Below are positions 5,441 to 55,169 of a stretch of 55,169 nt of DNA, piece by piece. Position numbers and translations under genes: made by a program. The notes beneath the pieces were generated by a model. It saw only the letters and a program-made list of their open reading frames with translations. It made no database searches and was not told where the DNA came from. Source of the DNA: Patescibacteria group bacterium. GTDB lineage: Bacteria; Patescibacteriota; Patescibacteriia; JAHIZJ01. How positions within the stretch are numbered: the stretch's first letter is position 1; each line of letters begins with the position of its first letter. The stretch is from the NCBI GenBank assembly GCA_028714495.1, contig JAQTMH010000006.1, forward strand, positions 1 through 55,169, written 5' to 3'.

Positions 5441-6370
5441 TTATTTCCCCCGATAAAACTTGGCTGCCTCCTCAGGCGCGACCGTGTTAACGATTAAACG
5501 CGAGCCCAACTCCAGCCCGGCCCAGGTGTCGCGGCGCGGGCAGACCCTTAAATATAGATGCTCGTCCTTGTAGTGAACGACTTGGTGCAAGTAGAAATTG
5601 TAGGGGAGGTTAATCTCGTTGAGTTTGCCGATAATCATTTTTAGCATCTTGGCCAGGGAATGGAACTCGCGGTGCCTAAGTGAAGATATATTATCAACAT
5701 GGCGCCGGGGAAAAACCCAAGCTTCGTAGTTATAAGTTGAGGCGTAGGGAGTAAAGGCGGCGGTCAGAGAGTCGTGGCTGATCCAGCGCGGGCCCTTAAA
5801 CTCCCGTCGGATCAACCGGCAGTAATAGCACTCGCCGTGTTTAATTTCATATTCCTCCGCCCGCTTCAGTTTTTCCAGAACGTGAGGCGGGATGAATTCC
5901 GAGGCGAAAATTTGGGAATGAGCGTGATCAATAGAGGCGCCGGCTTTGCCACCGTCATTTTTAAAGACCAGAATGTAGTTTATTTTATTGTCCCGGGACA
6001 GGTCCTTGACCCGGCGGCCGAAGACTTCCAAAACAGCCGCGATGTCTTTGGTCGGAAGCTCGGCTAATTCCTTTTCATGATAACGCGATTCAATCACCAC
6101 TTCCTGTCTGCCGTAGACGGCCTGATTATGCTGATCAACGACCGGGAATTTATTTTTGATAACCTTGATCTTCCAGTTGGCACCACCCAGCTGATAAATC
6201 GGTTTTACTATATCAACCTTTTCGGGGCAAAAAGGACAGTCCCTCTTTGGCATCATTGTCGGGACATGGGAAGGGAAATTGTGGGGGCGCTTGGATCGGC
6301 CAGGGGCGATGATGACAGTCCGGTCGTGGATATAATTATCTCTAATTTCAGCTTTTTGTACTTTGGGCAT
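5441..6370 (-). CDS. galT: Galactose-1-phosphate uridylyltransferase-family (HIT superfamily) nucleotidyltransferase
   Basis: CPFCPE zinc motif and active-site DHAHSQIF (HxHxQ). 309 aa. The start lies 1 nt after the glgA stop. Confidence 0.8.
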   Translation of the reverse strand: MPKVQKAEIRDNYIHDRTVIIAPGRSKRPHNFPSHVPTMMPKRDCPFCPEKVDIVKPIYQLGGANWKIKVIKNKFPVVDQHNQAVYGRQEVVIESRYHEKELAELPTKDIAAVLEVFGRRVKDLSRDNKINYILVFKNDGGKAGASIDHAHSQIFASEFIPPHVLEKLKRAEEYEIKHGECYYCRLIRREFKGPRWISHDSLTAAFTPYASTYNYEAWVFPRRHVDNISSLRHREFHSLAKMLKMIIGKLNEINLPYNFYLHQVVHYKDEHLYLRVCPRRDTWAGLELGSRLIVNTVAPEEAAKFYRGK

Positions 6371-6371
6371 A

Positions 6372-7847: not shown

Positions 7848-7883
7848 AGGAGAACCTTGGCGATATAATTTTTAATGTAGAAA

Positions 7884-8849: not shown

Positions 8850-10227
8850 GTTTTTTAGTCAATAGGTGCTTTTTCTCCTCCAGCTCGGTAACCCGGTCGC
8901 GAATTTGAGCCGCCCGTTCGTATTCGGTATTCTTGGCGGCTTCCAGCATCTGACGCTTAAGATTGGAGGTGATTTTATTGTACTCGGCTAGCGGAATATA
9001 TGGCAGTTCAGTGGTGATTCTTTGGGTGACATCTTCGTCAGCCTGGCGGGCCAAACTTTCAACTTTTCCGCTCCTCTGCCAGTCGAAGGCCGTATAAATA
9101 ATCTGTTGGTACAGCCTCTGCGCTTCCTGATAGATTGATTTTGACAAGCCCGGTATCATCAGAACAACATCACGAAGCTCCTTAGCGCCCGCCTCCATCA
9201 TTTCAATGCTCCACCAGGGCATTGCCGAAGCCCACCAGTATTGATCGCTGTGGAGAGAGCGATCAAGGGCCCGGCGGACAGCGGAAAAATTTTTAGCCTC
9301 GGGATTTAGTCGATTTACCAGTTTGATGGCCAGATTGGTTAATTTCCATTGCGCCTGATGGATTTCATTGTGCCGGTCGTTCCAGCGAGAGAAAGGGGTG
9401 TTTTGTTCGATGTCCTTTTGAAGAAGCGCCCAGCTCGATTCGTGGGGCACTAGACCATAACGTTTGGGAAAGAGGCGCGGTAATTCAGACAAAGTCACAC
9501 TTTTCATTTTAGGCACTTTGTACAGATCGAAAAGAAGCTGTTCCAGGCCGGGACGGTGGTGACCGAACGTCTCGCCGTCCATGGCGGTTACCAAATAATT
9601 GTGGGTTTGGAGTCGACCGCCTAACAGATTAACCAGCATTTTACTTGAGAAAACGCTTACCCCGACCTGGGCTGAAAGAATCCTAAAGCTAACGTCACGC
9701 TCACGAAAGAAAAAGTAGAGATTGGGGTCATTTTTCAAGTGATAAATAGTTTCATGATCCATCTGTTTCTGTTCGGGGTGGGCCAGCTCGTCGATTATGA
9801 GCCAGCGGTAGCCAAGCTTCTTGGCTACCCGGGCAATCTTCGGAGCATAGCCCATTTCAGTGGGGAAAAGGCCGGTGGGTTTATAGGTTGGGCCGAAAAA
9901 ACGTCGGTTAGTTTGGTAGTTGAGCTTGATTTGCCGGATTATTTCCGATTCAGGCAAAAGCGGCAGAAAGGGATGATATTTGGCCGTGTCAGTGAGTTCA
10001 ATTTGCCCCCTTTGAGCGAGCTTCTTGATGCCCAAAACGACGTCAAAACAGCCGTCGCGCTTTAGCAGTTCGACTAAAACGGCGTTGATGTTCAAAGTGA
10101 GGCGCGCCTTTGGATTTTTAAGCAAGCCAGCCACGATTTTACGGTAGCTTTCGTTAGCGATCTTTTTGACCCAGGACGATTTTTGGGTCGGAGGTTGATA
10201 AAAATGAAGAAAATTTGCCCAATACAT
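8833..10227 (-). CDS. Glycoside hydrolase family 57 protein with a C-terminal UVR domain
   Basis: FLHFYQPP N-terminus, DGETFGHH nucleophile motif and HSDQYWWA. C-terminal LKRQMLEAAKNTEYERAAQIRDRVTELEE resembles the UvrB/UvrC UVR motif. Confidence 0.8.
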   Translation of the reverse strand: MYWANFLHFYQPPTQKSSWVKKIANESYRKIVAGLLKNPKARLTLNINAVLVELLKRDGCFDVVLGIKKLAQRGQIELTDTAKYHPFLPLLPESEIIRQIKLNYQTNRRFFGPTYKPTGLFPTEMGYAPKIARVAKKLGYRWLIIDELAHPEQKQMDHETIYHLKNDPNLYFFFRERDVSFRILSAQVGVSVFSSKMLVNLLGGRLQTHNYLVTAMDGETFGHHRPGLEQLLFDLYKVPKMKSVTLSELPRLFPKRYGLVPHESSWALLQKDIEQNTPFSRWNDRHNEIHQAQWKLTNLAIKLVNRLNPEAKNFSAVRRALDRSLHSDQYWWASAMPWWSIEMMEAGAKELRDVVLMIPGLSKSIYQEAQRLYQQIIYTAFDWQRSGKVESLARQADEDVTQRITTELPYIPLAEYNKITSNLKRQMLEAAKNTEYERAAQIRDRVTELEEKKHLLTKKHGSRG

Positions 10228-10233
10228 GTTTTT

Positions 10234-11466
10234 TTAAGTTACCTTTCGCCCGCCAAAATAACGGGTGAATGGTTCAGCTGATAAATAAGTATATTTTTTT
10301 TGTTCGGCCGTTCCCGTGGTTTGCCATTTATCAACTAAAGCAATAATCTGATCATGGATTTTTTTAGCTGATAGAGTGGCCTTTGATTTAGGCAGACCGA
10401 TTTGGAGAGCTTGAAGTAGCTTGTCTGCCCCCCGGTCAACAATTTCCCTGCTCCACCAGGGTGAGGCGGCCGCCCACCAGTATTGATCAGAGGCCAAGGC
10501 TTGGTCGAGCAGGTCGCGAGCCCGGCTATATCTACGATTTGATACCGGGAGCGACTTAATCGATTCATAAACTAATTTAGTCAGTTTCCACTGAAGCTGG
10601 TGGATCGGGTTATGCAGATCGTTCCATAAGTAGTATGGATGATTCCCGCGGAGTTCCGATTGACGCGAAGCCCAGCTGGCCGGGACGGGAGCTACCTCTT
10701 TCCAGTGGCGGTATGAGGCGAGAACATCGGAGAGTTTGAGGTTTGTGAACCTCTTTGACTCAACCAGCTCGAGCCAGATGCGCAACAAATGAGGATTATG
10801 ATGACCGAGGTTTTCGCCATCAAAGCCGGTGATCAGGACAGAAGCGGCCCGGGGATCTTTCTTTAGGGCTTCATAAAATGAACGGGTATTTTTCAGAATA
10901 TCCATAAAAAACATGTCGCTGATAAAACGATTGCGAAATATGACTTTTAAAGATCCGGATAGAGTTTTATAGCCAGCATTGAATTGAACTTCCCCTAGAT
11001 TACCGTTATAAGATATTTCGTCAAGAATAATCCATTCATAGTCGAGCTTTTTGACGGTTTTCGCCACGGCTTGGCTATAGCACATCTCGGGCATGAAAAA
11101 ACCCTTAGGCTGATAGGCTGAACCAAAGAATCGCCGGTTGGTGTCATAGTTCAGCTGGATTTGGCGCTCCATCTCATAGCTTGATAGCAACGGCAGTATT
11201 GGGTGGTATTTGGCTGAGCCGGTGAACTCGATTTGCCCATTTTCGGCCAAGCCTTTGATGGTATTAAGAACCGAAGAAAACCCCAGTCGCTCTAGCTGTT
11301 CAGTCAGAGAGCCGCAGATATTGAGAGTTACCTTTATTCTGGGGCGGTTTTTAAGGGCTTGAAAGAGCGGGTGGTATGACTCCCGGACCACTTTTTGAAT
11401 GATTTTCTTGTCCCAGTTAGGTGGCTGGTAGATATGAAAAAAGTTTGCCCAGGAAGTCGTTGTCAT
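10234..11466 (-). CDS. Glycoside hydrolase family 57 protein, paralog without UVR domain
   Basis: FFHIYQPP, DGENLGHH and ASDQYWWA. 410 aa. Collinear similarity to 8833-10227. Confidence 0.8.
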   Translation of the reverse strand: MTTTSWANFFHIYQPPNWDKKIIQKVVRESYHPLFQALKNRPRIKVTLNICGSLTEQLERLGFSSVLNTIKGLAENGQIEFTGSAKYHPILPLLSSYEMERQIQLNYDTNRRFFGSAYQPKGFFMPEMCYSQAVAKTVKKLDYEWIILDEISYNGNLGEVQFNAGYKTLSGSLKVIFRNRFISDMFFMDILKNTRSFYEALKKDPRAASVLITGFDGENLGHHNPHLLRIWLELVESKRFTNLKLSDVLASYRHWKEVAPVPASWASRQSELRGNHPYYLWNDLHNPIHQLQWKLTKLVYESIKSLPVSNRRYSRARDLLDQALASDQYWWAAASPWWSREIVDRGADKLLQALQIGLPKSKATLSAKKIHDQIIALVDKWQTTGTAEQKKYTYLSAEPFTRYFGGRKVT

Positions 11467-11475
11467 AGAGTTGAA

Positions 11476-12951
11476 TTATACCTTGACCTTAGCGTAGCGT
11501 AAAGCTAAACGACAGAGCTTAATGTACTTTTTAGCGGGTATTTCCCAGGAATAGCTTTGCTGCATCCCGTGGACTACCAAGTCACGCCAGTAATCGGAGT
11601 ATTTATAGTTTACGATCGCCCGGGTAAGGGCGATTAACAAATCGCGGGAGTCGTAGCGTTTGAAAATGAAACCATTGCCCTTGCGGGTTTTCGGATTAAA
11701 ATCGGTTATCGTGTCTACCAGGCCACCCACGGCATTAACAATCGGGACTGAGCCGTAGCGCAGACTGATTAATTGGCCAAGCCCGCAGGGTTCGAAGCGC
11801 GAAGGCATCAGGAACATGTCAGAACCGGCGTAAATCTGGCTGGCCCGAGTGACGTCAAACTCGAGATGAACTCCGATTTTATTCGGAAATCTTTTGGCGG
11901 ATTTTCTAAAATATTTTTCGTATTTTTTTTCACCACCACCGACAATTACTAATTGGACATCCTGGCGCATTAATGGCTCGAGTATTTCCATTATTAAATC
12001 GAACCCCTTCTGTTCGGTAATCCGTGAGACCATGCCGATCAGGGGAATCTCGGCGTTTTGGGGCAAGCCGAACTCTTTTTGGAGGAAGAGCTTGTTCTTT
12101 TCTTTTCGGTGCAAAGAGTTGAAATCATAATTTTTGACTAAACCCGGGTCAGTTGATGGGTTGAAGTCAAAATAGTCGATCCCATTAATAATTCCGAAAA
12201 CCCGGTTTTTGCGGTTGAGCAAGATGCGATGTAGATCTTGGCCATATTCCTGGGTGAGTATTTCCTGGGCGTATTGTTCGGAGACGGTATTGATGACATC
12301 GGCGTAAAGGATCGCTCGTTTAGCGAAGTTGATGCAGGTGATGGCTTCTTTGTCGGAAAAATCTGGAAGGCGAGAGTGGCCGTAATCTTTCTTTTCCGGA
12401 GGCACGGTCCACCAGTCTTGGCCCATCTGGAAAGATAGATTGTGGATGGTGAAAAGGGTGGCCGTGTCTTCGTAGAATTTATTGTCGTGTAAGCGTTTTT
12501 TTAGATAGTAGGGGATTAAACCGGTATGCCACTCGTGACAATGGATAACGTCGGGTTGAAAGTCGATTAGGGTTAAAAGCTTGAGGGCGGCCAGCGAAAA
12601 AAACATGAAACGCCGGTTATCATTTTTTGAGCCATAGATAAATTTATAACGGCCGAAATATTCGGGATTATCAACAAAAAATATCGGCAGCCCGCGCATC
12701 AGCTCGCCCCGCCAGAATGAAGCCATTCGGGTATTTTTGTCATCAATCTGAATCGGGACCTCGTCGGCAATTTTTTTCAGGCCATACTGGGCAGTGTCTA
12801 TTACCCCATGAAGAGGCATAATAGCGATGACCTGGTGACCGAGGCGGCGCATGGCTTTAGGCAGGGAACGAGCCACGTCGGCTTGACCGCCGGCCTTGGC
12901 AAAGGGCGCCGTTTCGGCTGAGACAGAGACGATCTTTAGTATTTTACGCAT
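11476..12951 (-). CDS. glgA: Glycogen/starch synthase (GT5), paralog 2
   Basis: KAGGQADV and MPSRFEPCGLGQL. 491 aa, the same length as paralog 1. Confidence 0.9.
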   Translation of the reverse strand: MRKILKIVSVSAETAPFAKAGGQADVARSLPKAMRRLGHQVIAIMPLHGVIDTAQYGLKKIADEVPIQIDDKNTRMASFWRGELMRGLPIFFVDNPEYFGRYKFIYGSKNDNRRFMFFSLAALKLLTLIDFQPDVIHCHEWHTGLIPYYLKKRLHDNKFYEDTATLFTIHNLSFQMGQDWWTVPPEKKDYGHSRLPDFSDKEAITCINFAKRAILYADVINTVSEQYAQEILTQEYGQDLHRILLNRKNRVFGIINGIDYFDFNPSTDPGLVKNYDFNSLHRKEKNKLFLQKEFGLPQNAEIPLIGMVSRITEQKGFDLIMEILEPLMRQDVQLVIVGGGEKKYEKYFRKSAKRFPNKIGVHLEFDVTRASQIYAGSDMFLMPSRFEPCGLGQLISLRYGSVPIVNAVGGLVDTITDFNPKTRKGNGFIFKRYDSRDLLIALTRAIVNYKYSDYWRDLVVHGMQQSYSWEIPAKKYIKLCRLALRYAKVKV

Positions 12952-12963: not shown

Positions 12964-13449
12964 TTAAAGCCGATATTTATTTGAGATGTTTTGGCAGGCG
13001 CAGAAAGCACAGGCAATCGCGTCGACTGTGTCGTCCTGTTTCGGCAGCGACTTAGTTTTCAAAATCATTTTTAGGATTTTATAAACCTGGACTTTTTCAG
13101 CGTGGCCATATCCGGTTACTGTTTGTTTTATTTGGAGTGGGGTAAGTTCGAGAATCGGCAGTTTAAACTCGCTGACCGTGAAGGTAATCACCCCCCAGGC
13201 CTGACCGACGCTGAAAGCGGTCTTGGCGTTTTTAAAGAAGAACAGCTTTTCGATGGAAACTAAATCTGGTTGATGTTTTTTAAGAACCTGACGGAGTGCC
13301 CGATTGATTAAGACTAGGCGGTCCGGCAGAGATTTATTCGCCGGAGTGGTGATGAGACCTGAAGCCACAAGCTTTTGGGAAGATCCGGTTTTGGCGATTA
13401 CTCCATAACCGATTCTGGCTAAACCAGGGTCAATTCCGAGAATGATCAT
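12964..13449 (-). CDS. ruvC: Holliday junction resolvase RuvC
   Basis: MIILGIDPGLARIGYGVI N-terminus and DDTVDAIACAF near the C-terminus. 4-nt ATGA overlap with yebC. Confidence 0.9.
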   Translation of the reverse strand: MIILGIDPGLARIGYGVIAKTGSSQKLVASGLITTPANKSLPDRLVLINRALRQVLKKHQPDLVSIEKLFFFKNAKTAFSVGQAWGVITFTVSEFKLPILELTPLQIKQTVTGYGHAEKVQVYKILKMILKTKSLPKQDDTVDAIACAFCACQNISNKYRL

Positions 13450-26347: not shown

Positions 26348-26578
26348 CCGCTTTTCTTGTCGCCAAGAAAAGCGGCAGAAAAGAAGCGCCGCCTCCGAAA
26401 GACAATAAGTACCAATGTCATCCCGGACTTGATCCGGGATCCCATTATCTCTGCCACAACGGGATACTGAAACAAGTTCAGTATGACATTAAGGGCGGCG
26501 CTTTTGTCACGTTTTTTCGAAAAGGGCGGTTTGAATCTAACCTATTTTTCCAATCGCTGACTCCGCAATGGGCGGAAA
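26348..26578 (+). repeat. Hairpin-rich composite intergenic element, copy A (candidate structured RNA)
   Basis: Perfect 12-bp hairpin at 26348-26375 and hairpins at 26421-26439 and 26464-26484. A 78-nt 3' module (26501-26578) matches 31745-31822 at 66 of 78 positions by hand alignment. Confidence 0.6.
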
Positions 26579-31549: not shown

Positions 31550-31822
31550 GCTACTTTTCTTGTTCGCAAGAAAAGTAGCACAAAAGAACTCCCGCCCGTT
31601 CGATAAAAATGGACAAAAGACACCCTCGTCGGCCTGTCACGTTGCAAACTCCTCGCACGTAGGCGAAGATGACCATCTTCGCCTACGGCTCGTCAAACAG
31701 TGCAACGTTTCTCCGGATGTAAATCCGGACCGGCCTCCTCAGGGCTTTTGTCACATTTTTTCGAAAGGGGCGGCATGAGTCTCAATTGTTTTTCCAAACG
31801 CCGACTTCGCAATGGGCGGAAA
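31550..31822 (+). repeat. Hairpin-rich composite intergenic element, copy B (candidate structured RNA)
   Basis: Perfect 13-bp hairpin at 31550-31579 sharing the core CTTTTCTTG/CAAGAAAAG with copy A. Perfect 12-bp hairpin at 31659-31686 and a further hairpin at 31712-31729. Carries the conserved 78-nt 3' module at 31745-31822. Confidence 0.6.
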
Positions 31823-35430: not shown

Positions 35431-36435
35431 TTAGGATTTACCAGCCGTTGCCAGAATGGCCTTGCGGATTTCAGCCATGATATTCGGATTGTTCTTTAAA
35501 TCCTGGCGGGCGGTTTCTCGGCCAACACCCAATTTCCTGTCCCCAAAAGAGTAAGAATTTCCAGCCTTGGTAATCACGCCGTATTTTAAGCCGGTATCCA
35601 GCAGATCGCCGCTCATTGAAATCCCTTCGTTGTACATTATATCGAATTCAGTGGTTTTGAACGGCGCCGCCACTTTATTTTTAACTATTTTGGCCTTGAC
35701 GCGGTTTCCGATGACTTCATCACCTAGTTTAATTTGGGCCGCCCGGCGGACTTCGATTCTGACAGAGGAATAGAATTTTAAGGCCGTCCCTCCGGGCGTG
35801 GTTTCCGGGTTGCCGAACATCACGCCGATTTTCATCCGGATTTGGTTTATAAAGATGACTATGGTTTTAGTCTTGCTGATGATACCAGCCAATTTACGCA
35901 GGGCCTGGCTCATAAGCCGGGCTTGTAAGCCGATATGCATATCACCCATTTCACCCTCAATCTCAGCTTTGGGGGTTAGCGCGGCAACCGAATCAATCAC
36001 CACAATGTCAACGGAATTTGATCGAACAAGCGTTTCAACGATTTCCAGGGCCTGTTCGCCGGTGTCTGGTTGCGAAATTAGCAAATCGTCAACCTTGACG
36101 CCGATCTTGCGGGCGTAATCAGGATCGAGAGCGTGTTCAGCGTCGACGAAAGCCACGATTCCTCCCTGATTTTGAGCCTGAGCGACGACATGCAAAGCTA
36201 GGGTGGTCTTACCAGAAGATTCGGGGCCGTAAATTTCGACTACCCGTCCTCGGGGCAAACCATTGACGCCCGTGGCTAAATCGAGGGACAGGCAGCCGGT
36301 TGGGATTGCTTCCACGTTCATGCGCTTAGCCTCGCCTAAGCGCATGATAGCGCCTTCGCCAAACCGCTCCTTGATGTGTTCCACCGCGGCCTGGGCGGTT
36401 TTGATCTTGTCGGTGATGAGTGTTGTCTTTTTCAT
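35431..36435 (-). CDS. recA: Recombinase RecA
   Basis: [11 protein letters not shown], Walker [10 protein letters not shown] and [22 protein letters not shown]. Confidence 0.95.
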
Positions 36436-39428: not shown

Positions 39429-39592
39429 TAGGACTTACGCGCTTGCCGCTTTCGGCCCGGCGAAGCCGGTTCCATCAGCGGCTTTGGCCAATTTCTTCGT
39501 CAAAATGCTTCGTTTTTGCTCGTCGTAGTTTGACTACGCCTCGCAAAATCCTCGCATTTTTCCTCGAACTTGGCTCAAACGCGTAAGTCCTA
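39429..39592 (-). mobile_element. 164-bp MITE-like element, copy 2 (inverted relative to copy 1)
   Basis: Same TIRs as copy 1. Flanked by the direct 5-bp duplication TTTTA (39424-39428 and 39593-39597). 9 differences from copy 1, 8 of them within one 22-nt internal hairpin. Confidence 0.8.
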
Positions 39593-46896: not shown

Positions 46897-47006
46897 AAAA
46901 ACTCTCCCGTCTCCGGCCTGCTAGAGACGGTTTTGGTGGGCTTTATTCAAAGTCCTTAAAAATTCTCAAATCGATACCCCAAAAAGGGGTGAAATGTCAT
47001 GAATTG

Positions 47007-47034
47007 ATAATAACACTATTTTCGGAGTTGTCAA
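47007..47034 (-). promoter_or_regulatory. Candidate promoter of rpoBC
   Basis: On the minus strand: TTGACA - 16 nt - TATTAT, about 105 nt upstream of the rpoB ATG. Confidence 0.45.
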
Positions 47035-47272: not shown

Positions 47273-50200
47273 CTATTGCTCTAAGCTATTCAGACGATTA
47301 GTCAGATTGTCAATCTCTTGTTGCTGTTTTTCAATCATCTGATTTTGCTCCTGGATGGCTTTTACCATCGGCGCTATAAGGTCATCATATCTGAGAGAAC
47401 GAGTTTGATTTTCATCATTTTCGATCGAAACCAAATTCACCTCATCAGGAGAAACTAACTTCTCAATGTCTTGGGCTATAAATCCATAGTCGGTTTTCCC
47501 ATTACCGTTGATCATTGAATACTGAACTGGCCGAAGTTTATTGATGAAACTGAGACCGAGTGCGCTATCCTGAATGTCTTTCTTTAGGCGAAGATCAGAG
47601 TCGGTTGACCATGCAACGTGGCCTCGAATCAGCGTGACACTGGCATTGCCGACTCTGACCATATCAGATTGGGTAGCTTGAGCCCCATTGCCGAGCGAAG
47701 TTGTATTCCAATAAGCCGCAGCATTCGGTCCTGCTTGATAACCTAGAGCCGTGTTCCAACTTCCCGACGTGTTCGTGATGAGTGCTTCATATCCGATGGC
47801 GGTATTCATGCTACCCGTAGTGGCAAAAGCAGCTTTATAACCAAGCGCGCTGTTTTCAGCATTTGTATTATTCATAAGAGCCTGAGCACCGACGGCAGTA
47901 TTGCCTGTGGTGTAGCCGGTATAAAATAGCGCACGATCACCTACGGCGGTATTACTACCACCAGTGGTGGCTTGCATCAGAGCGCGATACCCAAGGGCAG
48001 TGTTCTTAGTACCAGTAGTGTTGTTATTAAGGGAGCCTTCACCTACAGCAGTATTATCAGAACCCGTGGTGTTGTATTCGAGAGATGTGTATCCAATAGC
48101 AGTGTTCGCATCGTCTGTATTTAATTGAAGCGCCGCAAGGCCAACAGCGACGTTATATGATCCCGTGACACTCGATTTGAGGGCATACCGACCAATAGCC
48201 ACGTTTTGCCCTCCACCGTTATTAGACGTAAAAGCGTCATTCCCAAAAACCGTATTGGACTCGCTTGATGCTGGACCACGCCCCGCACGAATGCCATTGA
48301 TCATGATGTCCGCACCACTGAAGTATCCAGCCCAGGAATTAGTGCCAGTAGCTGAACCGTAGATACCGGCAACCGTTGCGCCGGTTCCGACAACGTTACT
48401 GGCGCTGCCATAGACACCGGCGCAGATTTGGCCAGCTGCGCAAGTTGCTCCGGTTGCTAGCTCGCCATAAACACCGCTGCCGGCGACGGCAGTGCCCATT
48501 TTGAAACCGGATAAAGCATTGTAGTTTGAAGTACTGTCATTATATGTGGCGATTGTGTGGTGTTGACTATAGCGATATGTTGAATTAGCCACCTGGAAAA
48601 GCGGAGCATCAGCAGTTGTAGAATCGTAGATGGTTGTTTCGCCTTGATCGGAGATGGACAAACGCCAGGCGCTTACTGCTTTATCATAGAGACCAAATCT
48701 TTCATCATATTGTAACTGTGTTTCTTTCCAGTTATTCGAACTGACCGCACCTAACTGCACGCTGGAATCGGCGTTTTCGGCAGAAGTGTCGTCAACCGAG
48801 ATTTTCAGCCAGGTATTCATATCCGCACCTTGTCGCGCAATATGAAGTGGTTGATCAGGCGCTATGGTACCGATACCGACTTTTTTCCCAGTATCTGTCG
48901 CGAGATAGGCGTTTCCTTCCGCGACCAAACCGTCATCGCCGACTGCCGGGACACCGCCGTTGGCGTAATCGCCGACGACGAAGCCGTTCGGGCTGTTAAA
49001 CAACATGAGTGAGCTATCGCGCGAGATAAGCTGGTCGTAAGCAGCTCCGGCGGCGCTATCATCAAAGTCTTTTAAGGTGAGATAGGCCGTGGCAAAAATA
49101 GATCCAGCCACGCCGAATTGAGATCCAGCTCCAGCGGTGAAACTCGGACTACCTACCCGGACTAAGCCGGCATCGTCGATCTTCAGCCCTTCGTCCGCAT
49201 CGCCATCATTCGTGATCCAATTTCCGTTCATTTTCAGCCGCTGGGTGGCCGTGTGATTGCCAAGGTTGTCAGCGCTTCCACCCGTGGCGCTGATTTGCAG
49301 GGTTTCATTAGCGCCATTATTTAATTCAGTCAGAGTAATATTTGAACCGGCAACCAGTTTGCCATTGAGATAACCAGCAGTGGTGTCATTAGAGCTGACT
49401 TTAACCAGTTCATCGGTGCCGGTGCCGCCAGCGGTTGCCCAGGTTAAATTTCCACTGCCGTCATTTTTCAGATAGGTATTGGCTCCACCCTGGCTAGCTG
49501 GCCAAACGTAGGAGATATTTTTAATTTTTATCAGATCGCCGCTGGAATTAACCTGAAACAAATCATTATTTCCCACAGTCAGCAGAGAAGCGGGGCTAGG
49601 GTCGCCGATGCCGACTTTGCCGTCATTGGTAATGCGAAATTTTTCGGTCAAATGAGGATCGGTGTCGCCGCCAGTATTGCCCTGACCAGTTGAGACTGTG
49701 AGCACACTAGTCATGCCTAGGTGGACGCCTCGCGATGGATTGCTGCCACCACCGTTATAAGCGCCGCTTGGATTAACGAACTCCCAAGCTGTCCCATTCC
49801 ACTTTATATTGCTGCCGTAGTAGGTATTGCCGCCGGAGTCAGTGCCGAGCTGAAGATAGGTGCTAATGCCAACCCGGCCGGAAAAATATCCGGCGTAACC
49901 AGCGGTGTTATTTTGTTGAGCGTAGAGAGCAGAAGATGTGGTGTTAGCATATGTGGCGATTGCATCACCAGCGCCGCCAGTTCCGCTCTGGTTGTTATTG
50001 ACCACTAATTTCCCCACTGGAGCTACTTGATTAACTCCGACATTGCCGCTAACAACCGTCAGACTGTCAGTCAAGGTTCCATTTACATCCGTGGCCAGGG
50101 TTAGTCTGGTGTCATCGTGCGTATCAGTCGTATACGAAGTAATCGAAGCCCGACCAATATCGTTTTCCGCGCCAGTCGCGCTGATTTCAAACAGCAAGCC

Positions 50201-52126
50201 AGTACCCATGCCTGTTCGGAGGTTTTCAAATGTGTCGCGATGAGTGAGCCTTAGGGGGTAGTCCACATCATTATTAACGGCGACTTCTTCCAGGACCGCG
50301 GTTTCCAGAAGATTTTGTGGAGCATCTGTGCCAATGCCGACATTGGCGTATTTATTGACCAGAAGAGTGGGTATGCTATCCCCAGCCTGGGCAAAAACCG
50401 AAAAGGTATCGCGGCCATGGGGGACGGTCAGATAAGCAGTGGCGCCTGTGCTCGGCCCCACGCTGGTATTGACTCTGACCCAGTAGCCACTTATGCCGTT
50501 AACATTAGTTGTTTGCCAGTTGGCTGGGAAGGTATAGGTAACCAACCCATCTTGGCTGAAATTGTTGGTCCCATCATTAACTGCGCTTAAAGACGTCCAA
50601 GAGCTACCATTCCAGTATCTGAAAGATAGGTTCATGCCAGCTCCGGCGGTGGCGAGATCGAAGAAGATTGAATTAAACGGAGCATTGGTTCGGCCAACAT
50701 AGAAATACCAATTGGTATTATTCAGCATGCCGTAGGGAACGCCCCCGCTAATTTTGGCTTCGGTCGCGTTGCTTAGATACGCGCTGCCGTTATAAGCAAA
50801 AACATAATCAAAAGCCTCATTTCTGACTGTCACAAACTGGTCAGCGCCGATTGAGCCGGTGCCTAAGAGCGCGGTTTTGCCGGAAAAGTATCCGCTAAAT
50901 CCATCCGGATCATTTTGTTCCGCATAGATGGCTGAATTATCAGAGCTGTTCTTCACTGCGAGCATGGTTGAATCACCCGTATTGCTCCAGCCGATTCTGA
51001 CCTTAGTTGAAGCTGACTGTAGAGGATAGATATGATCGCCGGCTGCGCCGTCCCAGAGCGAGTCGCCACCACCGCCCGTTGCGTCAATGCGTAGAGTTTC
51101 ATTCGCGCCATTGTTTAGCTCGGTCAGAGTAATATTTGTGCCAGCCACCAGTTTGCCATTGAGATAACCAGCAGTGGTGTCGTTTGAGCTGACTTTAACC
51201 AGTTCGTCGGTTCCGCCAGCGCCGCCTTGATCCGGTCCGCACAGGAGTTTCCCGCTGGCATCCGTGTCTAGAGTCGAATTGCCGGTACAGCCAACAACTC
51301 CAGGCAGGTAAACATCACCATTGGCGGCAACTCTGAATTTATTGGCCCCACTATCCTGGACTAAAAACTCACCCGCTCCATCAAGGTTGAAAGTCAGGTT
51401 ATTCGCTCCCTGGGTGATGGTGGTCGCTCGGTTTAAAGTTCCACCCAACTCAAAGATATTGCCATTTAAAGTTAAACCGTTGTTAGCCGTGTAGGTGGCG
51501 GTTTGCCAACTCTGAATACAGCTATCATTTAGACAGAGGTTAGCTGGCAGTCCGGCTTGGCCGATTCTGACATCCTGGCCAGCCCCTGGCACCAGCTCCC
51601 CATCATCGAAGTTCAAAAACAAGGGCACACCAATTGATTTGATATCCACTCCAGCGTCACTGGGCGCGGCTTTCACCTCCAGTTTTTTCCCATCCGGGCT
51701 GCCATTGTCAATCAGGATTGAGCCGTTATTAGCTCCGGCATTGGTGATTTTCACCTGACTGTAGAGTTCGAGTCGGCTATTGACCTCTTCACCTGGTGAA
51801 AGGTAGACGACATTACCCGCTTCTTCCAGGTGCGGTTTGGCGGGATCGTCAGAATCACTCCAAAAAATACCCCGGTCATCAGTACTGATAAGGACATTTC
51901 CACTGCTCACCTTGAAGGATTCTCCATCAATAGTCAGGCTTCCCAGCTTGGTTTGAGCCGCGCCCGAGACATTGATCGGGGCAGCCACATTGCCTCCTGG
52001 AGCCGCGTCCGTGGGATAGTTCCAGGCCGCCCTGGCCACCCTCAGCCCAATCAGGCTAAAGACACATAAAAAAGCCACCAGAAGAGTTAGTTTTGATAAC
52101 CTGGAGGCTTGGTTGTTTGATTTCAT
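47273..52126 (-). CDS. Giant secreted/anchored fibre-like protein with 14-residue head-type repeats and a C-terminal S74-type intramolecular chaperone domain
   Basis: N-terminal signal/TM (LTLLVAFLCVFSLIGLRVARA) and G/T/N/S-rich beta-type repeats. NTAIGY.AL..NTTG repeats at about 47640-48290. C-terminus DSDLRLKKDI...YGFIAQDIEKLVSPDE...LRYDDLIAPMVKAIQEQ plus a coiled coil. The ORF could also start at the TTG at 52135. Confidence 0.85.
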   Translation of the reverse strand: MKSNNQASRLSKLTLLVAFLCVFSLIGLRVARAAWNYPTDAAPGGNVAAPINVSGAAQTKLGSLTIDGESFKVSSGNVLISTDDRGIFWSDSDDPAKPHLEEAGNVVYLSPGEEVNSRLELYSQVKITNAGANNGSILIDNGSPDGKKLEVKAAPSDAGVDIKSIGVPLFLNFDDGELVPGAGQDVRIGQAGLPANLCLNDSCIQSWQTATYTANNGLTLNGNIFELGGTLNRATTITQGANNLTFNLDGAGEFLVQDSGANKFRVAANGDVYLPGVVGCTGNSTLDTDASGKLLCGPDQGGAGGTDELVKVSSNDTTAGYLNGKLVAGTNITLTELNNGANETLRIDATGGGGDSLWDGAAGDHIYPLQSASTKVRIGWSNTGDSTMLAVKNSSDNSAIYAEQNDPDGFSGYFSGKTALLGTGSIGADQFVTVRNEAFDYVFAYNGSAYLSNATEAKISGGVPYGMLNNTNWYFYVGRTNAPFNSIFFDLATAGAGMNLSFRYWNGSSWTSLSAVNDGTNNFSQDGLVTYTFPANWQTTNVNGISGYWVRVNTSVGPSTGATAYLTVPHGRDTFSVFAQAGDSIPTLLVNKYANVGIGTDAPQNLLETAVLEEVAVNNDVDYPLRLTHRDTFENLRTGMGTGLLFEISATGAENDIGRASITSYTTDTHDDTRLTLATDVNGTLTDSLTVVSGNVGVNQVAPVGKLVVNNNQSGTGGAGDAIATYANTTSSALYAQQNNTAGYAGYFSGRVGISTYLQLGTDSGGNTYYGSNIKWNGTAWEFVNPSGAYNGGGSNPSRGVHLGMTSVLTVSTGQGNTGGDTDPHLTEKFRITNDGKVGIGDPSPASLLTVGNNDLFQVNSSGDLIKIKNISYVWPASQGGANTYLKNDGSGNLTWATAGGTGTDELVKVSSNDTTAGYLNGKLVAGSNITLTELNNGANETLQISATGGSADNLGNHTATQRLKMNGNWITNDGDADEGLKIDDAGLVRVGSPSFTAGAGSQFGVAGSIFATAYLTLKDFDDSAAGAAYDQLISRDSSLMLFNSPNGFVVGDYANGGVPAVGDDGLVAEGNAYLATDTGKKVGIGTIAPDQPLHIARQGADMNTWLKISVDDTSAENADSSVQLGAVSSNNWKETQLQYDERFGLYDKAVSAWRLSISDQGETTIYDSTTADAPLFQVANSTYRYSQHHTIATYNDSTSNYNALSGFKMGTAVAGSGVYGELATGATCAAGQICAGVYGSASNVVGTGATVAGIYGSATGTNSWAGYFSGADIMINGIRAGRGPASSESNTVFGNDAFTSNNGGGQNVAIGRYALKSSVTGSYNVAVGLAALQLNTDDANTAIGYTSLEYNTTGSDNTAVGEGSLNNNTTGTKNTALGYRALMQATTGGSNTAVGDRALFYTGYTTGNTAVGAQALMNNTNAENSALGYKAAFATTGSMNTAIGYEALITNTSGSWNTALGYQAGPNAAAYWNTTSLGNGAQATQSDMVRVGNASVTLIRGHVAWSTDSDLRLKKDIQDSALGLSFINKLRPVQYSMINGNGKTDYGFIAQDIEKLVSPDEVNLVSIENDENQTRSLRYDDLIAPMVKAIQEQNQMIEKQQQEIDNLTNRLNSLEQ

Positions 52127-52173
52127 GGTATTCAAATATTAAGGATAATAATCTATGGTTGAAATTCGCCTTA

Positions 52174-52202: not shown

Positions 52203-52235
52203 AAAACCAGACCGGCTTGGATCCGGTCTTGGTTT
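52201..52235 (-). terminator. Intrinsic terminator after giant gene 2
   Basis: On the minus strand: ACCAAGACCGG-ATCCAAG-CCGGTCTGGT stem followed by TTTTTTGTATTTT. Confidence 0.6.
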
Positions 52236-52257: not shown

Positions 52258-55169
52258 TTATAAGTCGCAACAGATAATATCAGTCAGACGGTCTAACTCA
52301 TCACCAGTACCACTATCCCAGAACTTCACCCCGCACACGTATTTACCCTCCGAACACATTACCGTAGTCCCATCTGGTTGGCCGGGCATGCTTATTACTT
52401 CGGACGCTCCATGAACATTGCCTTGTACTCCCAGATCTCCATACGAAAAAACACCATATCGGGTACCAGTGCCAGCGCCAGCTTTTCCGTAAACACCATA
52501 GCTGTATTCGCCAGCATCAGTCGGGCCAGCCTCACCCCAGACACCAACAGTGGTTCCGGTAGAACCAGTCGCTCCGCCTTTGCCCCAAACGCCAGCTGAA
52601 CGCCCCTGCTGGGCCGTAATGTCTCGTCCAATACCAGCCACACCGTAACTTCCGCGATTAGTAGTGGTGGTCGAACCGCCCACACCCAAAATACCAACGC
52701 CGGTATTGGAGGTTGATTCATTGATTGCTCGAAGTGTGCTTAGTGAATTCCAGGATGGCTCGAGAGTGGAAAAGCGGCCATACCCGCTGAAACTACCGGC
52801 ATATCCGCCTGCGTTATTCTGCTGGGCATAGAGGGTTGAATTAGTAGTATTAGCATAAACAGCAATCGCATCACCAACGCTGCCGGTTCCTGATTGGTCT
52901 TTATTAACGACGAATCTTCCCACTGGAGCTGTTTGGCTGATTCCGACATTGCCATCCTTGTCTATTCTCATATTCTCGTAGACATTTCCATCAACACCAT
53001 TTAGAAACTTGGTTATCGCCTTACCGCCCGCAGCGATTTCAAAATTGATTGCTCCACGCAGCGTGCCAGGATCGGCTCCGTCGTAGAATGAGTACTGAGC
53101 CTGGTCGGCCACAGCATCAGCAGTATTGCGCAGGCGGATGTTCGGACCGATAGCTCCACTAGCGCTTTTATTTATCTGTAATTGACTGGTTGGAGCATTC
53201 GTTCCGATGCCCACATTGCCAGTGTCTTGCTTCAGGTACATGATTGGATCAATAGTGCTCGAGGATATCTTCAAATCACGAGTTGGAGTATAGAGATTGT
53301 TTATTCCGCCATAAGCGCCAAGGGTTAGATATATTTCAGGAGAGCTGGGTGAACCAAGGTTTATCTGTGGGCCGGTACCTATACCCGCGAAGTCTAGCTG
53401 AACCGCGTAAGTTCCATTATCAGCCCGGACATTTCCTCCAATATGCAGTTTTTCTAATGGGTCTGATTTGCCGATTCCGACATTGCCGTCTGTTTTAACA
53501 AATACCCCCTCATCACCGCCGTCATTTGAAACCCAGAAGCCGCTCATCTTCAAGTTCTGCGTGGCCGTGTGATTGCCAAGGTTGTCAGCGCTTCCACCCG
53601 TGGCGCTGATTTGCAGGGTTTCATTAGCGCCATTATTTAATTCAGTCAGAGTAATATTTGAACCGGCAACCAGTTTGCCATTGAGATAACCAGCAGTCGT
53701 GTCATTGGCGCTTACTTTGGCAAGTTCATCGGTGACAGCTTGGCATGTTACGGTACCGTTCGCATTAATCACCCTGATTGCTTGTCCAGCTGCGCAATCA
53801 CTGAAGAATTTGGTTGAGCCGTCACCTTTGAAGATACTAGTAGCGATCGCGACACTGCCATTGACATCAAGGGTGGCATCAGGCGTTTCATCGTTGATAG
53901 CCAGCCGACCGTTTTGTAAATATAGAGTAGTGGTATTAGCTGAGCCAGTCTCATAGATTTGAAGGCGAGGGATGTTGTCTTCCCAATAGATTCCAGCTTG
54001 CTCACCGGGGGCAGTGTTAAAGGTAATAGCTGATTGACTTGAGGCTGGAGTTTTTAAGGTAAGATAGCTGATACCAGTGCCGCTTTCAATCAGCATTGGG
54101 GTGTCGCCAGAGTTGTAGAGATGGAGTTTATCAGTCGGGCTGGCTGTGCCGATACCGACATTGCCTGCCGTATCAATCACCAGCCGGTCTTTTTCCAATT
54201 CAGTTCCACCCGCACTGTTGTCCTTGAAGACCAATTTACCCTGACCCTCGCCCGCATCACCGCCGGCTGCGATGAGCGACCACATACGACCACCAGCTAG
54301 ACCAGTAGAGTCAAGGCGCGCATCACTGCCCCAGGTCTGACCGCCATAGACATGCAGTCGCGACACAGGATTAGCGAAGCCGATGCCGACTTTTGTGCTG
54401 GCCGGAGTTTTTGGATTTATGGCAACCCCCTGGGTTCCTTCCCAAAGTGATTCGCCGCCCGTGACAGTGGCCCAAGTTAAATTCCCGCTGCCGTTATTTC
54501 TCAGGTAGGTATTAGCCGCCCCTTGAGCCGCTGGCCAAACATAGGAGACGTTTTTAATCTTTACAAGATCGCCGATAGAATTGACCTGAAATAAATCATT
54601 GGTGCCAACGGTCAGCAAAGATACTGGGCTGGTATCGCCAATTCCGACATTACCCGCAGTGTCAATAGTTAAGCGGGCCATAGTTTGCGGATCTCCGCCA
54701 GCATCAACATCTCGTATGATGAATTTACCGATTCCATAATCAACTGCCGATCCTGACCCGGTGGATATGATATCCCATCTTCGGCCGTCAACTCCAGATT
54801 CCCGGGCGTTGAGAGCGATGTCCGCGCCGGCAGAATGTCCAGCGTCAGCATAGACTTCCAGTTTTGAGAGGGCCTGGACAGTGGTTGAACCAACCAAGAC
54901 GCTGATTGAGGAAGTGGGATGAAGCGTGACGCCAGTTATATCCCAGTGGCTGGTTCCACTGCCCGTGGCATCTGCTCCGCACTGAAGCTTGCCGCCAGTA
55001 CCAGTATCTAGCGTTTGCGCTCCACTACAATTTGGTAAAGCCGGCAGGTAAACATCACCATTGGCGGCAACTCTGAATTTATTGGCCCCACTATCCTGGA
55101 CTAAAAACTCACCCGCTCCATCAAGGTTGAAAGTCAGGTTATTCGCTCCCTGGGTGATGGTGGTCGCTC
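52258..55169 (-). CDS. Second giant fibre-like surface protein (paralog), 5' end outside the window, with a Cys-containing C-terminal tip instead of the S74 domain
   Basis: The frame stays open upstream of the listed TTG at 54897 to the window edge; I translated ...NGDVYLPALPNCSGAQTLDTGTGGKLQCGADATGSGTSHWDITGVTLHPTSSISVLVGSTTV. Shares modules and identical DNA blocks with 47273-52126. Ends ...VMCSEGKYVCGVKFWDSGTGDELDRLTDIICCDL. Confidence 0.8.
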   Translation of the reverse strand, partial: ATTITQGANNLTFNLDGAGEFLVQDSGANKFRVAANGDVYLPALPNCSGAQTLDTGTGGKLQCGADATGSGTSHWDITGVTLHPTSSISVLVGSTTVQALSKLEVYADAGHSAGADIALNARESGVDGRRWDIISTGSGSAVDYGIGKFIIRDVDAGGDPQTMARLTIDTAGNVGIGDTSPVSLLTVGTNDLFQVNSIGDLVKIKNVSYVWPAAQGAANTYLRNNGSGNLTWATVTGGESLWEGTQGVAINPKTPASTKVGIGFANPVSRLHVYGGQTWGSDARLDSTGLAGGRMWSLIAAGGDAGEGQGKLVFKDNSAGGTELEKDRLVIDTAGNVGIGTASPTDKLHLYNSGDTPMLIESGTGISYLTLKTPASSQSAITFNTAPGEQAGIYWEDNIPRLQIYETGSANTTTLYLQNGRLAINDETPDATLDVNGSVAIATSIFKGDGSTKFFSDCAAGQAIRVINANGTVTCQAVTDELAKVSANDTTAGYLNGKLVAGSNITLTELNNGANETLQISATGGSADNLGNHTATQNLKMSGFWVSNDGGDEGVFVKTDGNVGIGKSDPLEKLHIGGNVRADNGTYAVQLDFAGIGTGPQINLGSPSSPEIYLTLGAYGGINNLYTPTRDLKISSSTIDPIMYLKQDTGNVGIGTNAPTSQLQINKSASGAIGPNIRLRNTADAVADQAQYSFYDGADPGTLRGAINFEIAAGGKAITKFLNGVDGNVYENMRIDKDGNVGISQTAPVGRFVVNKDQSGTGSVGDAIAVYANTTNSTLYAQQNNAGGYAGSFSGYGRFSTLEPSWNSLSTLRAINESTSNTGVGILGVGGSTTTTNRGSYGVAGIGRDITAQQGRSAGVWGKGGATGSTGTTVGVWGEAGPTDAGEYSYGVYGKAGAGTGTRYGVFSYGDLGVQGNVHGASEVISMPGQPDGTTVMCSEGKYVCGVKFWDSGTGDELDRLTDIICCDL

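Follow-up and report, generated by a model that had tools for sequence, protein, structure and literature searches.

How do two long genes whose products are largely different come to share stretches of DNA without a single mismatch? The question was raised by the window analyzed here, which is the entire contig JAQTMH010000006.1 (55169 nt) of assembly GCA_028714495.1, from a Patescibacteria group bacterium. For independent data, we used a k=31 assembly (Logan unitigs) of the landfill metagenome run X1 and a second landfill run, X2, the coverage of which is low (4–8x). The evidence consists of contigs instead of raw reads; k=31 contigs cannot show flank-to-flank joins across a 137-nt block or low-frequency variants inside a block.

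The tandem genes upstream of rpoB

Two fibre genes are arranged in tandem on the minus strand, upstream of rpoB, which directly adjoins gene 1 on its downstream side. Every gene, domain, block and module given below is also on the minus strand. The fibre genes sit among housekeeping genes and are chromosomal; no prophage was found at the locus among the annotated ORFs of the 55-kb contig, and scanning the window for tRNAs and Rfam families gave no match. In the spacer that separates the stop of gene 2 from the start of gene 1, one terminator-like hairpin with a T-run (52209–52229, minus strand) was identified by consensus match. A single 1524-nt contig of X1 runs from the end of gene 2 through this spacer into the beginning of gene 1, which confirms the tandem order. 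The window also encodes RecA (35431–36435, minus strand; Pfam RecA, 8.9e-136) and RuvC (12964–13449, minus strand; Pfam RuvC, 7e-43); homologous-recombination machinery is available to the organism. Judged from its sequence, the locus probably consists of two genes that are transcribed separately and encode long trimeric fibre adhesins, which are phage-tail-fibre-like and resemble the MAT ('mosaic adhesive trimer') fibres of Bdellovibrio bacteriovorus.

Gene 1 (47273–52135) is an ORF of 1620 residues, predicted to encode a secreted S74-type fibre protein; the gene caller (P0002) placed the start at the ATG at 52126, giving 1617 residues. The Peptidase_S74 intramolecular chaperone domain (PF13884; 47438–47599, aa 1513–1566) was matched in Pfam with 43.1 bits, compared to a cut-off of 22, and the SDLRLK motif can be read in its translation. 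The protein matched PHROG tail spike/fibre families (6.5e-49). PDB sequences gave no match at E <= 1, and an exact look-up of the product returned no record. Scanning the GTDB representative genomes with gene 1 identified only one distant Bacteroidia S74 match, L001.

Gene 2 (52258–55169) is a non-S74 fibre paralogue, the frame of which is open to the contig end (55167). The window contains its 3′ 969 codons; the 5′ part lies beyond the contig end and was rebuilt from the unitig differences of X1, with the reading frame kept, giving a full length of about 1202 residues. It has no Pfam match and no S74 domain, matched PHROG tail fibre families and has a Cys-rich tail at its end; the tip (aa 781–969), modelled by AlphaFold from the single sequence, gave an unusable structure with a pLDDT of 33. 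The gene 2 shaft repeat 'RLVIDTAGNVGIGTASPTDKLHL' (54061–54195, aa 325–369) is homologous to solved Bdellovibrio MAT fibres: phmmer matched the shaft to 8OND (Bd2133, E = 1.9e-13), 8OJN (Bd3182, 1.1e-6) and 8OML (Bd1334, 1.2e-5), in several repeat registers. Among 20 family members, the consensus GNVGIGTTSP..KL.V recurs every ~70–90 residues.

MAT fibres form S74 and non-S74 subfamilies, and the N-termini of Bd2133 and Bd1334 are 75% identical while their tips are swapped (Caulton et al. 2024, PMC10769870). Like these fibres, the proteins encoded here are at least 1000 residues in length, with shafts built of 'GNVGIGT..P..L.V' repeats; a Peptidase_S74 chaperone terminates one paralogue and a different tip the other, and the N-terminal end is conserved between paralogues whereas the distal end is exchanged. 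The resemblance of both genes to MAT fibres is suggested by shaft and S74 domain, the N-terminal domain having been compared only with the homologues P0003, P0004 and P0005 (33–46% identity). Different from MAT fibres, which belong to a deltaproteobacterial predator, the two genes come from a Patescibacteria (CPR) bacterium and lie next to each other at a fixed position upstream of rpoB. In DNA, the parts that they share are 100% identical; the exchange is thereby caught nearly in the act and is not deduced from 75% protein identity.

Overall, the gene 1 and gene 2 proteins are only 27% identical, and the long alignments between the genes have synonymous divergence (pS) of 0.71–0.80. Uniform identity across both genes, which would have pointed to a simple recent duplication, is excluded by the 27% figure. 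The N-terminal domain is of a different character; here the two paralogues are nearly identical over ~270 residues. A candidate Sec-type signal peptide (aa 1–36, ...VARA|AW) was recognized by eye. No match to the shared N-terminal 291 residues was found in the JGI metagenome contigs.

Three identical blocks with sharp borders

Block A is 137 nt in length. As the first-pass annotation had stated, its copy in gene 1 (49245–49381; codons 919–964, TAGYLNGKL...SADNLGNHTA) is exactly identical to its copy in gene 2 (53561–53697; codons 491–536); we checked this directly. Both copies are in the same codon phase (phase 0), and the identity could not be extended on either side. A BLASTN self-comparison of the locus, the check proposed earlier, confirmed the other statements on the diverged surroundings; the abrupt switches from 100% to 70–85% identity or to no similarity are real. 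In this comparison, 49198–49418 and 53514–53734 are 89% identical, and 24 of the 24 mismatches are located outside the core (0/137 in the core, 17/47 and 7/37 in the flanks). The chance that all 24 miss the core is (84/221)^24 = 8e-11; with the flank identity of 0.71, a run of 137 straight matches has a probability of 1e-20. Block A has a pS of 0 over 34 synonymous sites; given a pS of 0.585, as observed against the older third copy, the chance of no synonymous difference is 3e-14. In X1, block A forms one 137-nt unitig with a depth of 19.5, compared to 9.4–11.3 for its flanks.

Block D is located in the N-terminal part. Its copy in gene 1 (51303–51463) is 161 nt in length and identical to that in gene 2, of which 127 nt are within the window (55043–55169) before the contig ends. 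Direct comparison confirmed that 51303–51429 and 55043–55169 match exactly over 127 nt, up to the window edge; the left border is real, whereas the length of 127 nt, as first annotated, holds within the window and is an artefact of the contig end. In X1, the independent assembly, block D is a 161-nt unitig with a depth of 24.5, twice that of its flanks, and it connects to the flanks of gene 1 as well as to those of gene 2. Its pS is 0.03.

Block E (51599–52096 in gene 1, ~codon 14 to 179) is 498 nt in length and covers the candidate signal peptide and the N-terminal domain. The copy in gene 2 is outside the contig; its identity is known from X1, in which block E forms one 498-nt unitig with a depth of 20, twice that of the flanks. 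This unitig branches at 52096–52109, leading to gene 1's own upstream region on one path and to a 4455-nt contig with the start of gene 2, ATGAACTTCAAAACC..., on the other. Between blocks D and E is a diverged patch of 135 nt (51464–51598 in gene 1); compared with it, gene 2 has 25 substitutions, which involve all four bases, and a 6-nt deletion, and retains ~80% identity and the reading frame. In X1, the patch region (51434–51628) is represented by two alternative unitigs, one of 195 nt (depth 13.3) and one of 189 nt (depth 14.7), each at about single depth. Thus, 25 of the 25 substitutions in the N-terminal 794 nt are inside 135 nt.

Taken together, blocks A, D and E are single unitigs in X1 that break precisely at the block ends, have double depth (flanks 7.6–11.3 overall) and each join two different flanks; no alternative unitigs were present inside the blocks in X1 at k=31. 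The blocks are identical, are present in two copies and have sharp borders, with a pS of 0–0.03 in A and D vs a saturated remainder. All repeats between the fibre genes are direct and none is inverted in the BLASTN self-comparison.

The repeats had also been flagged as an assembly hazard, and rightly so, since the contig stops precisely 127 nt into one of them. As 127 is a common maximum k in assembly, the assembler evidently failed at this point; at 137 nt, block A exceeds this k, and only reads or read pairs resolved the two passages through it. Could the blocks or their linkage then be due to near-identical repeats or strain variants that were collapsed, joined as chimeras or lost to bubble-popping? 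Besides the contig end and the dependence of the block A passages on read or pair information, this reading could draw on X2, in which the depth over block A is 7.2 and not clearly double at 4–8x coverage. However, the independent k=31 assembly gave the same exact blocks as double-depth single unitigs, the same data kept the two ~1:1 versions of the patch apart, and one independent contig crosses the gene 2/gene 1 junction. The flanks of block A in gene 2 are contiguous in homologue P0005. Both copies of blocks A and D are on one contig. Moreover, a swapped linkage would change which halves are paired, yet two identical copies would remain. An assembly artefact is therefore very unlikely in our estimate.

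Older modules and related populations

Both genes also share modules that have diverged for much longer. The third copy of the ~45-residue module A, A′ (51072–51215, gene 1 aa 307–354), was present as the first-pass annotation had reported, a few bases away from the position of 51066–51208 given there. A′ is 84.7% identical in nucleotides to 49278–49421 and 80.7% to 53594–53733; over 45 core codons, A′ and A have a pS of 0.585 and a pN of 0.143, and they have one 35-nt exact run in common. Module B (LLTVG.NDLFQVNS...SYVWP...; 49434–49621 in gene 1, 54467–54654 in gene 2) had been described as ~80% similar flanking sequence. The similarity is real (77.7% nucleotide identity, pS 0.71, pN 0.10, longest exact run 11 nt), but the segment is a separate module and no collinear flank: it adjoins block A in gene 1 and is ~730 nt away from it in gene 2. 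Module C (APVG..VV...YAQQNN.GYAG.FSG; 49890–50047 in gene 1, 52796–52953 in gene 2) has 72% nucleotide identity, with a pS of 0.72 and a pN of 0.19; the positions of its counterparts indicate that the order of modules differs between gene 1 and gene 2.

Module A, the 'DTTAGYL' module, is very widespread, with at least 2457 clusters in a library of 1.84 billion proteins and up to 19 copies per protein. The Pfam-A copy that we scanned contains no family for it; PF26696, given in the precomputed annotation of some homologues, is absent from the Pfam-A scan and does not coincide with module A. The module protein is 80–93% identical across phyla and in a cyanophage protein (A-HIS2). Such extraordinary conservation might suggest that selection on the protein module, on DNA or on RNA keeps the blocks identical and that recombination is not involved. 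However, module A of L009 is 93% identical in protein and only 67% in DNA, with 20% identity at third codon positions, so protein selection cannot explain the block identity. The tandem module copies of L010 are 91–98% identical in protein and 73–86% in DNA, and wherever else module A was tested, A′ included, DNA identity was 60–86%. Blocks D and E are identical despite having no comparable conservation across phyla. In the related population X3, block D has 13 differences, mostly spaced in multiples of three, which indicates that the DNA sequence is free to vary. Identity by selection only was rejected on the third-codon-position controls, and constraint is effectively refuted by the synonymous-site controls; we give it next to no probability.

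The fibre modules are common to phage proteins, as seen in the PHROG matches and the A-HIS2 protein, and module A is an insertion in gene 2 relative to P0005, in which the counterparts of gene 2's flanks of block A are adjacent, 7 residues apart. Both genes might accordingly have received the same foreign segment separately through horizontal transfer, a phage fibre gene being one conceivable source. Against this, there are three separate identical blocks, which include the family's own N-terminal domain, and the module copies tested in other organisms have only 60–67% DNA identity. Near-identical block DNA was not found outside this population, as the Logan index returned the same study only and the metagenome and genome scans were empty. 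Separate acquisition by both genes is thus exceedingly improbable. The P0005 comparison supports the linkage of block A as assembled, for gene 2 only.

The relatives of the locus bear on whether its variation is built in. In the syntenic relative L004/L006, module copies are 68–85% identical, no exact run between paralogues exceeds 33 nt and no identical block is present, indicating that the locus does not always undergo homogenisation. The phenomenon recurs in a homologous gene of L008, which has a 182-nt exact block, after which identity drops sharply to ~70%; this speaks for gene conversion. In a relative with an RpoB 82% identical, the order of S74 and non-S74 genes is swapped. The block D unitig of X3 has the same starting border and a depth of 17.4 vs 4.8–8.3, the X3 contigs representing a population and not one assignable genome. 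In X3, a single gene 2-like upstream unitig leads into distal parts of both the gene 1-like and the gene 2-like kind, and another contig is without module A.

The locus could be read as one of programmed variation, in which the blocks would be built-in joints for high-frequency re-assortment of shaft and tip or for gene fusion, altering host-receptor specificity. Crossovers between direct repeats of equal codon phase would all give in-frame products; the unlike module order in the two genes, the swapped gene order in the relative and the X3 junctions would fit as well. However, the 55-kb contig has no silent cassettes, recombinase, reverse transcriptase or inverted repeats, and the window offers no more than two full genes and three module A copies. 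The syntenic relative lacks identical blocks, and X1 and X2 revealed no alternative junctions, although k=31 contigs are incapable of showing these. With no reverse transcriptase, invertase or silent cassettes, a programmed system is not supported, and we consider it quite unlikely. The antigenic or receptor-variation and cassette-exchange systems brought up in the first-pass annotation likewise found no support in these full-length genes with direct repeats.

Specific systems of this kind were rejected on the contig itself. A diversity-generating retroelement (DGR) does not fit, as the 33 annotated ORFs include no reverse transcriptase, the repeats are identical and the patch changes are not adenine-specific. 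A shufflon or invertible segment is at odds with direct repeats and with a contig that has no site-specific recombinase. Cassette antigenic variation does not agree with two copies in long open frames that have their own starts and a terminator-like hairpin between them on this contig.

Probable recent gene conversion and its meaning

The reading that we prefer, with good though not complete confidence, is that very recent RecA-type gene conversion between the tandem paralogues made the identical blocks. Recent non-reciprocal recombination, as proposed in the first annotation, best explains the sharp switches in identity, given the pS of 0 in the blocks vs ~0.7, the doubled depth and the unitig breaks at the block ends. 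The genes would be ancient paralogues assembled from shuffled conserved modules, between which RecA-type homologous recombination copied DNA very recently in at least two places. The first would comprise the signal peptide and the cell-proximal domain at the N-terminus (blocks E and D), with the 135-nt patch between them either unconverted or re-imported; the second would be one mid-shaft module, block A. Conversion may have proceeded via heteroduplex or double-strand-break repair and may have started in short exact runs, such as the one shared by A and A′. Any direction of transfer would be conjectural, as donor and recipient are not distinguishable without close outgroup genomes. As a consequence, both fibres would have an identical anchoring end and different distal parts. 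With the blocks being direct repeats of matching codon phase, in-frame chimeric or fused fibre genes could result from crossovers between them.

The event is real and tidy, and it is of a kind that is already known. In Helicobacter pylori babA/babB and Moraxella catarrhalis uspA1/uspA2, paralogous adhesin genes undergo gene conversion and share a near-identical internal cassette. Like those pairs, the genes analyzed here are full-length paralogues, of the expressed type, with identical segments in otherwise divergent sequence, and the exchange would be RecA-dependent and non-reciprocal; different from them, they belong to another protein family and phylum, are in tandem and have no known phenotype. 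Cassette antigenic variation is represented by Neisseria pilE/pilS, Borrelia vlsE and Mycoplasma genitalium MgPa. These systems and our locus have in common that short segments are transferred non-reciprocally into a gene for a surface protein, whereas silent partial cassettes, asymmetry of expression site and donor and a large donor archive are absent from the window.

Tail-fibre genes of T-even and P2/Mu-like phages are mosaic, and their conserved motifs are recombination sites that swap adhesin segments. Phage fibre mosaicism was reportedly described by Tetart and colleagues in 1998 and by the groups of Haggard-Ljungquist and Sandmeier in 1992. The genes analyzed here are similar to mosaic phage fibres in their modular build, in short conserved motifs beside variable parts, in abrupt changes of identity at the borders and in their PHROG matches. 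Different from the phage genes, they are bacterial and chromosomal with no prophage, and the exchange would be between resident paralogues and not between co-infecting phages.

Attachment to other microbes is the presumed way of life of Patescibacteria; to our knowledge, how they recognize their hosts is largely unknown beyond type IV pili. For Patescibacteria, our literature search identified no paper that deals with gene conversion or with proteins of the S74 or tail-fibre-like type. The locus indicates that some Patescibacteria have tandem fibre genes of the design of Bdellovibrio prey-recognition fibres, with exchange so recent that synonymous changes are nil in block A. The repeat explains the contig break at this point and serves as a warning that fibre genes in such MAGs will often be truncated or mis-joined.

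The locus thus offers a concrete, testable case of an adhesin repertoire that would be kept compatible at the anchoring end and reshuffled distally. A bolder idea, which we regard as speculative and unlikely, is that the fixed locus upstream of rpoB is, in this group of Patescibacteria, a recombination-driven switchboard for host recognition, in which the N-terminal domain and the 'DTTAGYL' module serve as in-frame joints. If this is true, RecA-mediated crossovers would fuse, swap and re-assort shaft and tip segments of the tandem fibre genes, and an obligate epibiont would gain rapid heritable variation in the host surface that it can grasp.

The two fibre genes and their modules

Both open reading frames are on the minus strand. 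Gene 1 (47273–52135) encodes 1620 residues; its N-terminus, judged by eye, is a putative Sec-type signal peptide, and its C-terminus carries a Peptidase_S74 intramolecular-chaperone domain (Pfam, 43.1 bits against a cut-off of 22). Gene 2 extends from 52258 to the window end, its frame open to the last base; the in-window part has no Pfam domain. Phage tail-spike and tail-fibre PHROGs match gene 1, and tail-fibre PHROGs match gene 2. The shaft repeat of gene 2 is similar to the solved Bdellovibrio 'mosaic adhesive trimer' (MAT) fibres Bd2133, Bd3182 and Bd1334 (E down to 1.9e-13), and in an alignment of 20 relatives the unit 'GNVGIGTTSP..KL.V' returns every ~70–90 residues. MAT fibres comprise S74 and non-S74 subfamilies; their N-terminal end is invariant and thought to anchor the fibre to the cell, whereas their tips have been exchanged during evolution (PMC10769870). 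By sequence, the gene 1/gene 2 pair fits the MAT design, and the two genes also resemble mosaic phage tail-fibre genes. The terminator-like hairpin between gene 2 and gene 1 suggests that they are transcribed separately. At 46907–47034 (minus strand), a strong sigma-70-like promoter match (47034–47007, 11/12, extended TG) is followed by a GC-rich hairpin and T-run (46930–46907) just short of where rpoB begins (46896), an arrangement that may represent a leader or attenuator.

The two paralogues are of old origin and built from modules. Over a long alignment, their proteins are 27% identical with pS of 0.71–0.80, which rules out the uniform identity of a simple recent duplication. They have a few strongly conserved modules in common, and these are differently ordered: D, A′, C, B, A and S74 in gene 1; D, B, A, C and a Cys-rich tip in gene 2. 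In modules B and C, the protein is strongly constrained and silent sites are saturated (pS 0.71–0.72, pN 0.10–0.19), with exact runs of at most 11–12 nt.

Outside the fibre genes, the contig is ordinary chromosome, encoding PBP1, TyrRS, a glycogen cluster, RuvC, YebC, PGI, SOD, SHMT, FolD, YchF, S6, SSB, EF-P, RecA, FtsK, RpoC and RpoB; no prophage, reverse transcriptase or site-specific recombinase is present on it. The nearest named homologues come from 'Patescibacteria group bacterium' MAGs. The glycogen-type cluster (5441–12951, minus strand) contains duplicated genes: two GT5 starch-synthase-like genes (6372–7847 and 11476–12951) with a 73% identical stretch in common, and two GH57 genes (8833–10227 and 10234–11466). 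One 164-nt intergenic element occurs twice in opposite orientation, at 3590–3753 (plus) and 39429–39592 (minus), with 94.5% identity and 13-nt perfect terminal inverted repeats (TAGGACTTACGCG...CGCGTAAGTCCTA). It folds as a long branched hairpin (MFE -75 and -81 kcal/mol; z -8.2 and -9.3), and most of the 9 differences fall within one hairpin that remains paired; it has no Rfam match and may be either a MITE-like element or some structured RNA. In two ORF-poor stretches (~26.3–27.4 kb and 31.5–32.3 kb), there is a 79-nt direct repeat of 85% identity (26500–26578 and 31744–31822, plus strand), in which neither a tRNA nor, even at E <= 0.1, an Rfam family was recognised.

Identical blocks inside diverged paralogues

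The first-pass annotation had proposed two exactly identical stretches, and both are confirmed. Block A (49245–49381 and 53561–53697, minus strand) is exact over 137 nt and cannot be extended by even 1 base; block D matches over 127 nt (51303–51429 and 55043–55169), reaching the window end. BLASTN comparison of the window with itself also recovered the claimed third, diverged copy (A′, 51072–51215, 81–85% identical) and the claimed ~80% segment pair, a 78% identical module at 49434–49621 and 54467–54654; it added a 72% identical module at 49890–50047 and 52796–52953, and found no further long repeats in the fibre genes besides the A, A′, D, B and C stretches. Block A lies within a 221-nt homologous stretch of 89% overall identity, in which all 24 mismatches fall in the 84 flanking bases (17/47 on one side and 7/37 on the other); uniform spread of mismatches would give this core-free pattern with a chance of 8e-11. 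Next after block D, DNA identity drops to 49% over 34 codons. Block A shows no change at any of its 34 synonymous sites; for the portion of block D inside the window, pS is 0.03, its sole counted difference sitting just beyond the block border.

Module A is ~45 residues long (TDELVKVSSNDTTAGYLNGKLVAG.NITLTE.N.GANETL.I.A) and strikingly conserved as protein; its 'DTTAGYL' copies are at 49274–49417 and 51072–51215 in gene 1 and 53594–53737 in gene 2 (all minus strand). It is very widespread: a library of 1.84 billion representative proteins, scanned in full, contains it in at least 2457 clusters (50% identity) at E <= 1e-3, of which 594 reach E <= 1e-10. A single protein can have as many as 19 copies, and the module spans Patescibacteria, Flavobacteriales and one cyanophage. 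The scanned copy of Pfam-A has no model for it; PHROG 21412 (tail fibre) matches it weakly. Protein constraint is excluded as the cause of block identity, because the DNA of module A varies despite near-equal protein. A copy in L009 agrees with it at 93% of residues, 67% of DNA positions and 20% of third codon positions, and tandem copies in L010 are 91–98% identical as protein and 73–86% as DNA; A′ has 80–85% DNA identity to the module A copies. At the pS of 0.585 that separates A from A′, a complete lack of silent differences would have a probability of 3e-14.

Blocks in independently assembled data

The 31-mers of the locus are 99% and 96% present in two landfill metagenome runs (X1 and X2) of one study, whose k=31 Logan contigs were made independently of the window contig. 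These contigs split exactly at the block borders. In X1, block A is a 137-nt unitig of depth 19.5 with flanks of 9.4–11.3, and block D is a 161-nt unitig (51303–51463 in gene 1, minus strand) of depth 24.5, connected to both gene 1 and gene 2 flanks. Two alternative unitigs represent 51434–51628 (minus strand): the window form (195 nt, depth 13.3) and a variant (189 nt, depth 14.7) with 25 substitutions and a 6-nt deletion, which delimit a patch of 135 nt. Next after them comes block E, a 498-nt unitig (51599–52096 in gene 1, minus strand) of depth 20, which forks at 52096–52109. One branch is the upstream sequence of gene 1, on a 1524-nt contig spanning the spacer and the gene 2 end; the other is a 4455-nt contig reading ATGAACTTCAAAACC..., in frame with gene 1 codon 10. 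Applying the X1 variant to the window sequence, we reconstructed an in-frame gene 2 N-terminus, identical to gene 1 over approximately codons 10–277 save the patch, with its 8 amino-acid changes and 2-codon deletion; full-length gene 2 would be ~1202 residues. Coverage in X2 is just 4–8x, too low to inform copy number. The two genes therefore have in common no fewer than three blocks without a single difference (498, 161 and 137 nt), which lie between ~80% identical or unrelated sequence.

The longest contig recorded for the window's own protein is 55169 nt, so the window is a whole contig and its right end is an assembly break, exactly 127 nt into the repeat; the assembly hazard foreseen by the first-pass annotation is thus real. 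The figure of 127 probably reflects a common maximum k-mer size of the assembler. We consider it very improbable, however, that the blocks or their linkage are themselves an assembly artefact. An assembly made with another k recovers these blocks too, at twice the depth of their flanks, and no alternative unitig exists inside them, while the same data separate the patch variants at ~1:1. The gene 2/gene 1 junction is crossed by one independent contig. Flank-to-flank joining across block A is not readable from k=31 contigs, but the gene 2 linkage as assembled agrees with P0005, the S74 fibre of a syntenic relative, in which the upstream and downstream flanks of gene 2 are 7 residues apart; relative to P0005, module A looks like an insertion in gene 2.

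Relatives and probable gene conversion

In this relative, a Patescibacteria genome (L004/L006; RpoB 82% identical), the locus is conserved and reads P0005, the non-S74 fibre P0004, rpoB, rpoC and ftsK, so that the fibre-gene array is again directly upstream of rpoB. The two fibre genes are in reversed order there compared with the window; the fibres are just 30–50% identical to those of the window, piecewise. The module copies of the relative are 68–85% identical and no exact run between its paralogues exceeds 33 nt, so identical blocks are not a built-in property of the fibre family. Its array is adjoined by a short third N-terminal-domain paralogue (362–378 residues) and by a 1311-residue beta-helix protein. 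The gene of the closest homologue (L008, from another metagenome) contains a 182-nt exact intragenic repeat (3215–3396 and 3797–3978) that falls abruptly to ~70% identity beyond; this is the signature found in the window, and this kind of event thus recurs outside the locus. In a third run, X3, which contains a related population, the block D unitig has the same starting border and approximately double depth, and differs from the window at 13 positions, spaced mostly by multiples of three. There, one gene 2-like upstream unitig leads into both gene 1-like and gene 2-like distal parts, and one contig joins module B straight to the sequence following module A. As X3 contigs are not assignable to genomes, these data are only suggestive that tracts and module arrangements vary among lineages.

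The earlier proposal was gene conversion or cassette exchange. Its first part is well supported, as identical two-copy blocks with sharp borders were shown inside old paralogues; the second is not supported, since the hallmarks of cassette-type antigenic variation, of DGRs and of shufflons were looked for on the contig and not found. The blocks probably arose when RecA-dependent gene conversion copied sequence between the two neighbouring genes; the contig carries both recA and ruvC. Conversion was probably initiated where short stretches match exactly, for instance the 35 nt common to A and A′, and would comprise at least two tracts, the N-terminal domain and module A. The 135-nt patch would be a stretch spared by conversion or a later import; the X3 main lineage has the gene 1 form, and a more distant X3 homologue has some gene 2 letters.

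Paralogous adhesin genes, babA/babB among them, are known to undergo events of this kind, and the mechanism itself is not new. Our literature search found nothing on gene conversion, S74 or tail-fibre-like proteins in Patescibacteria; to our knowledge, gene conversion has not been described before in this family and phylum, and the locus is a clear, well-supported instance of a very recent one. Both fibres would likely retain the same cell-proximal end with differing distal parts. The blocks repeat in direct orientation and share one codon phase across the two genes, so crossovers between them would likely give rise to in-frame fused or swapped genes.
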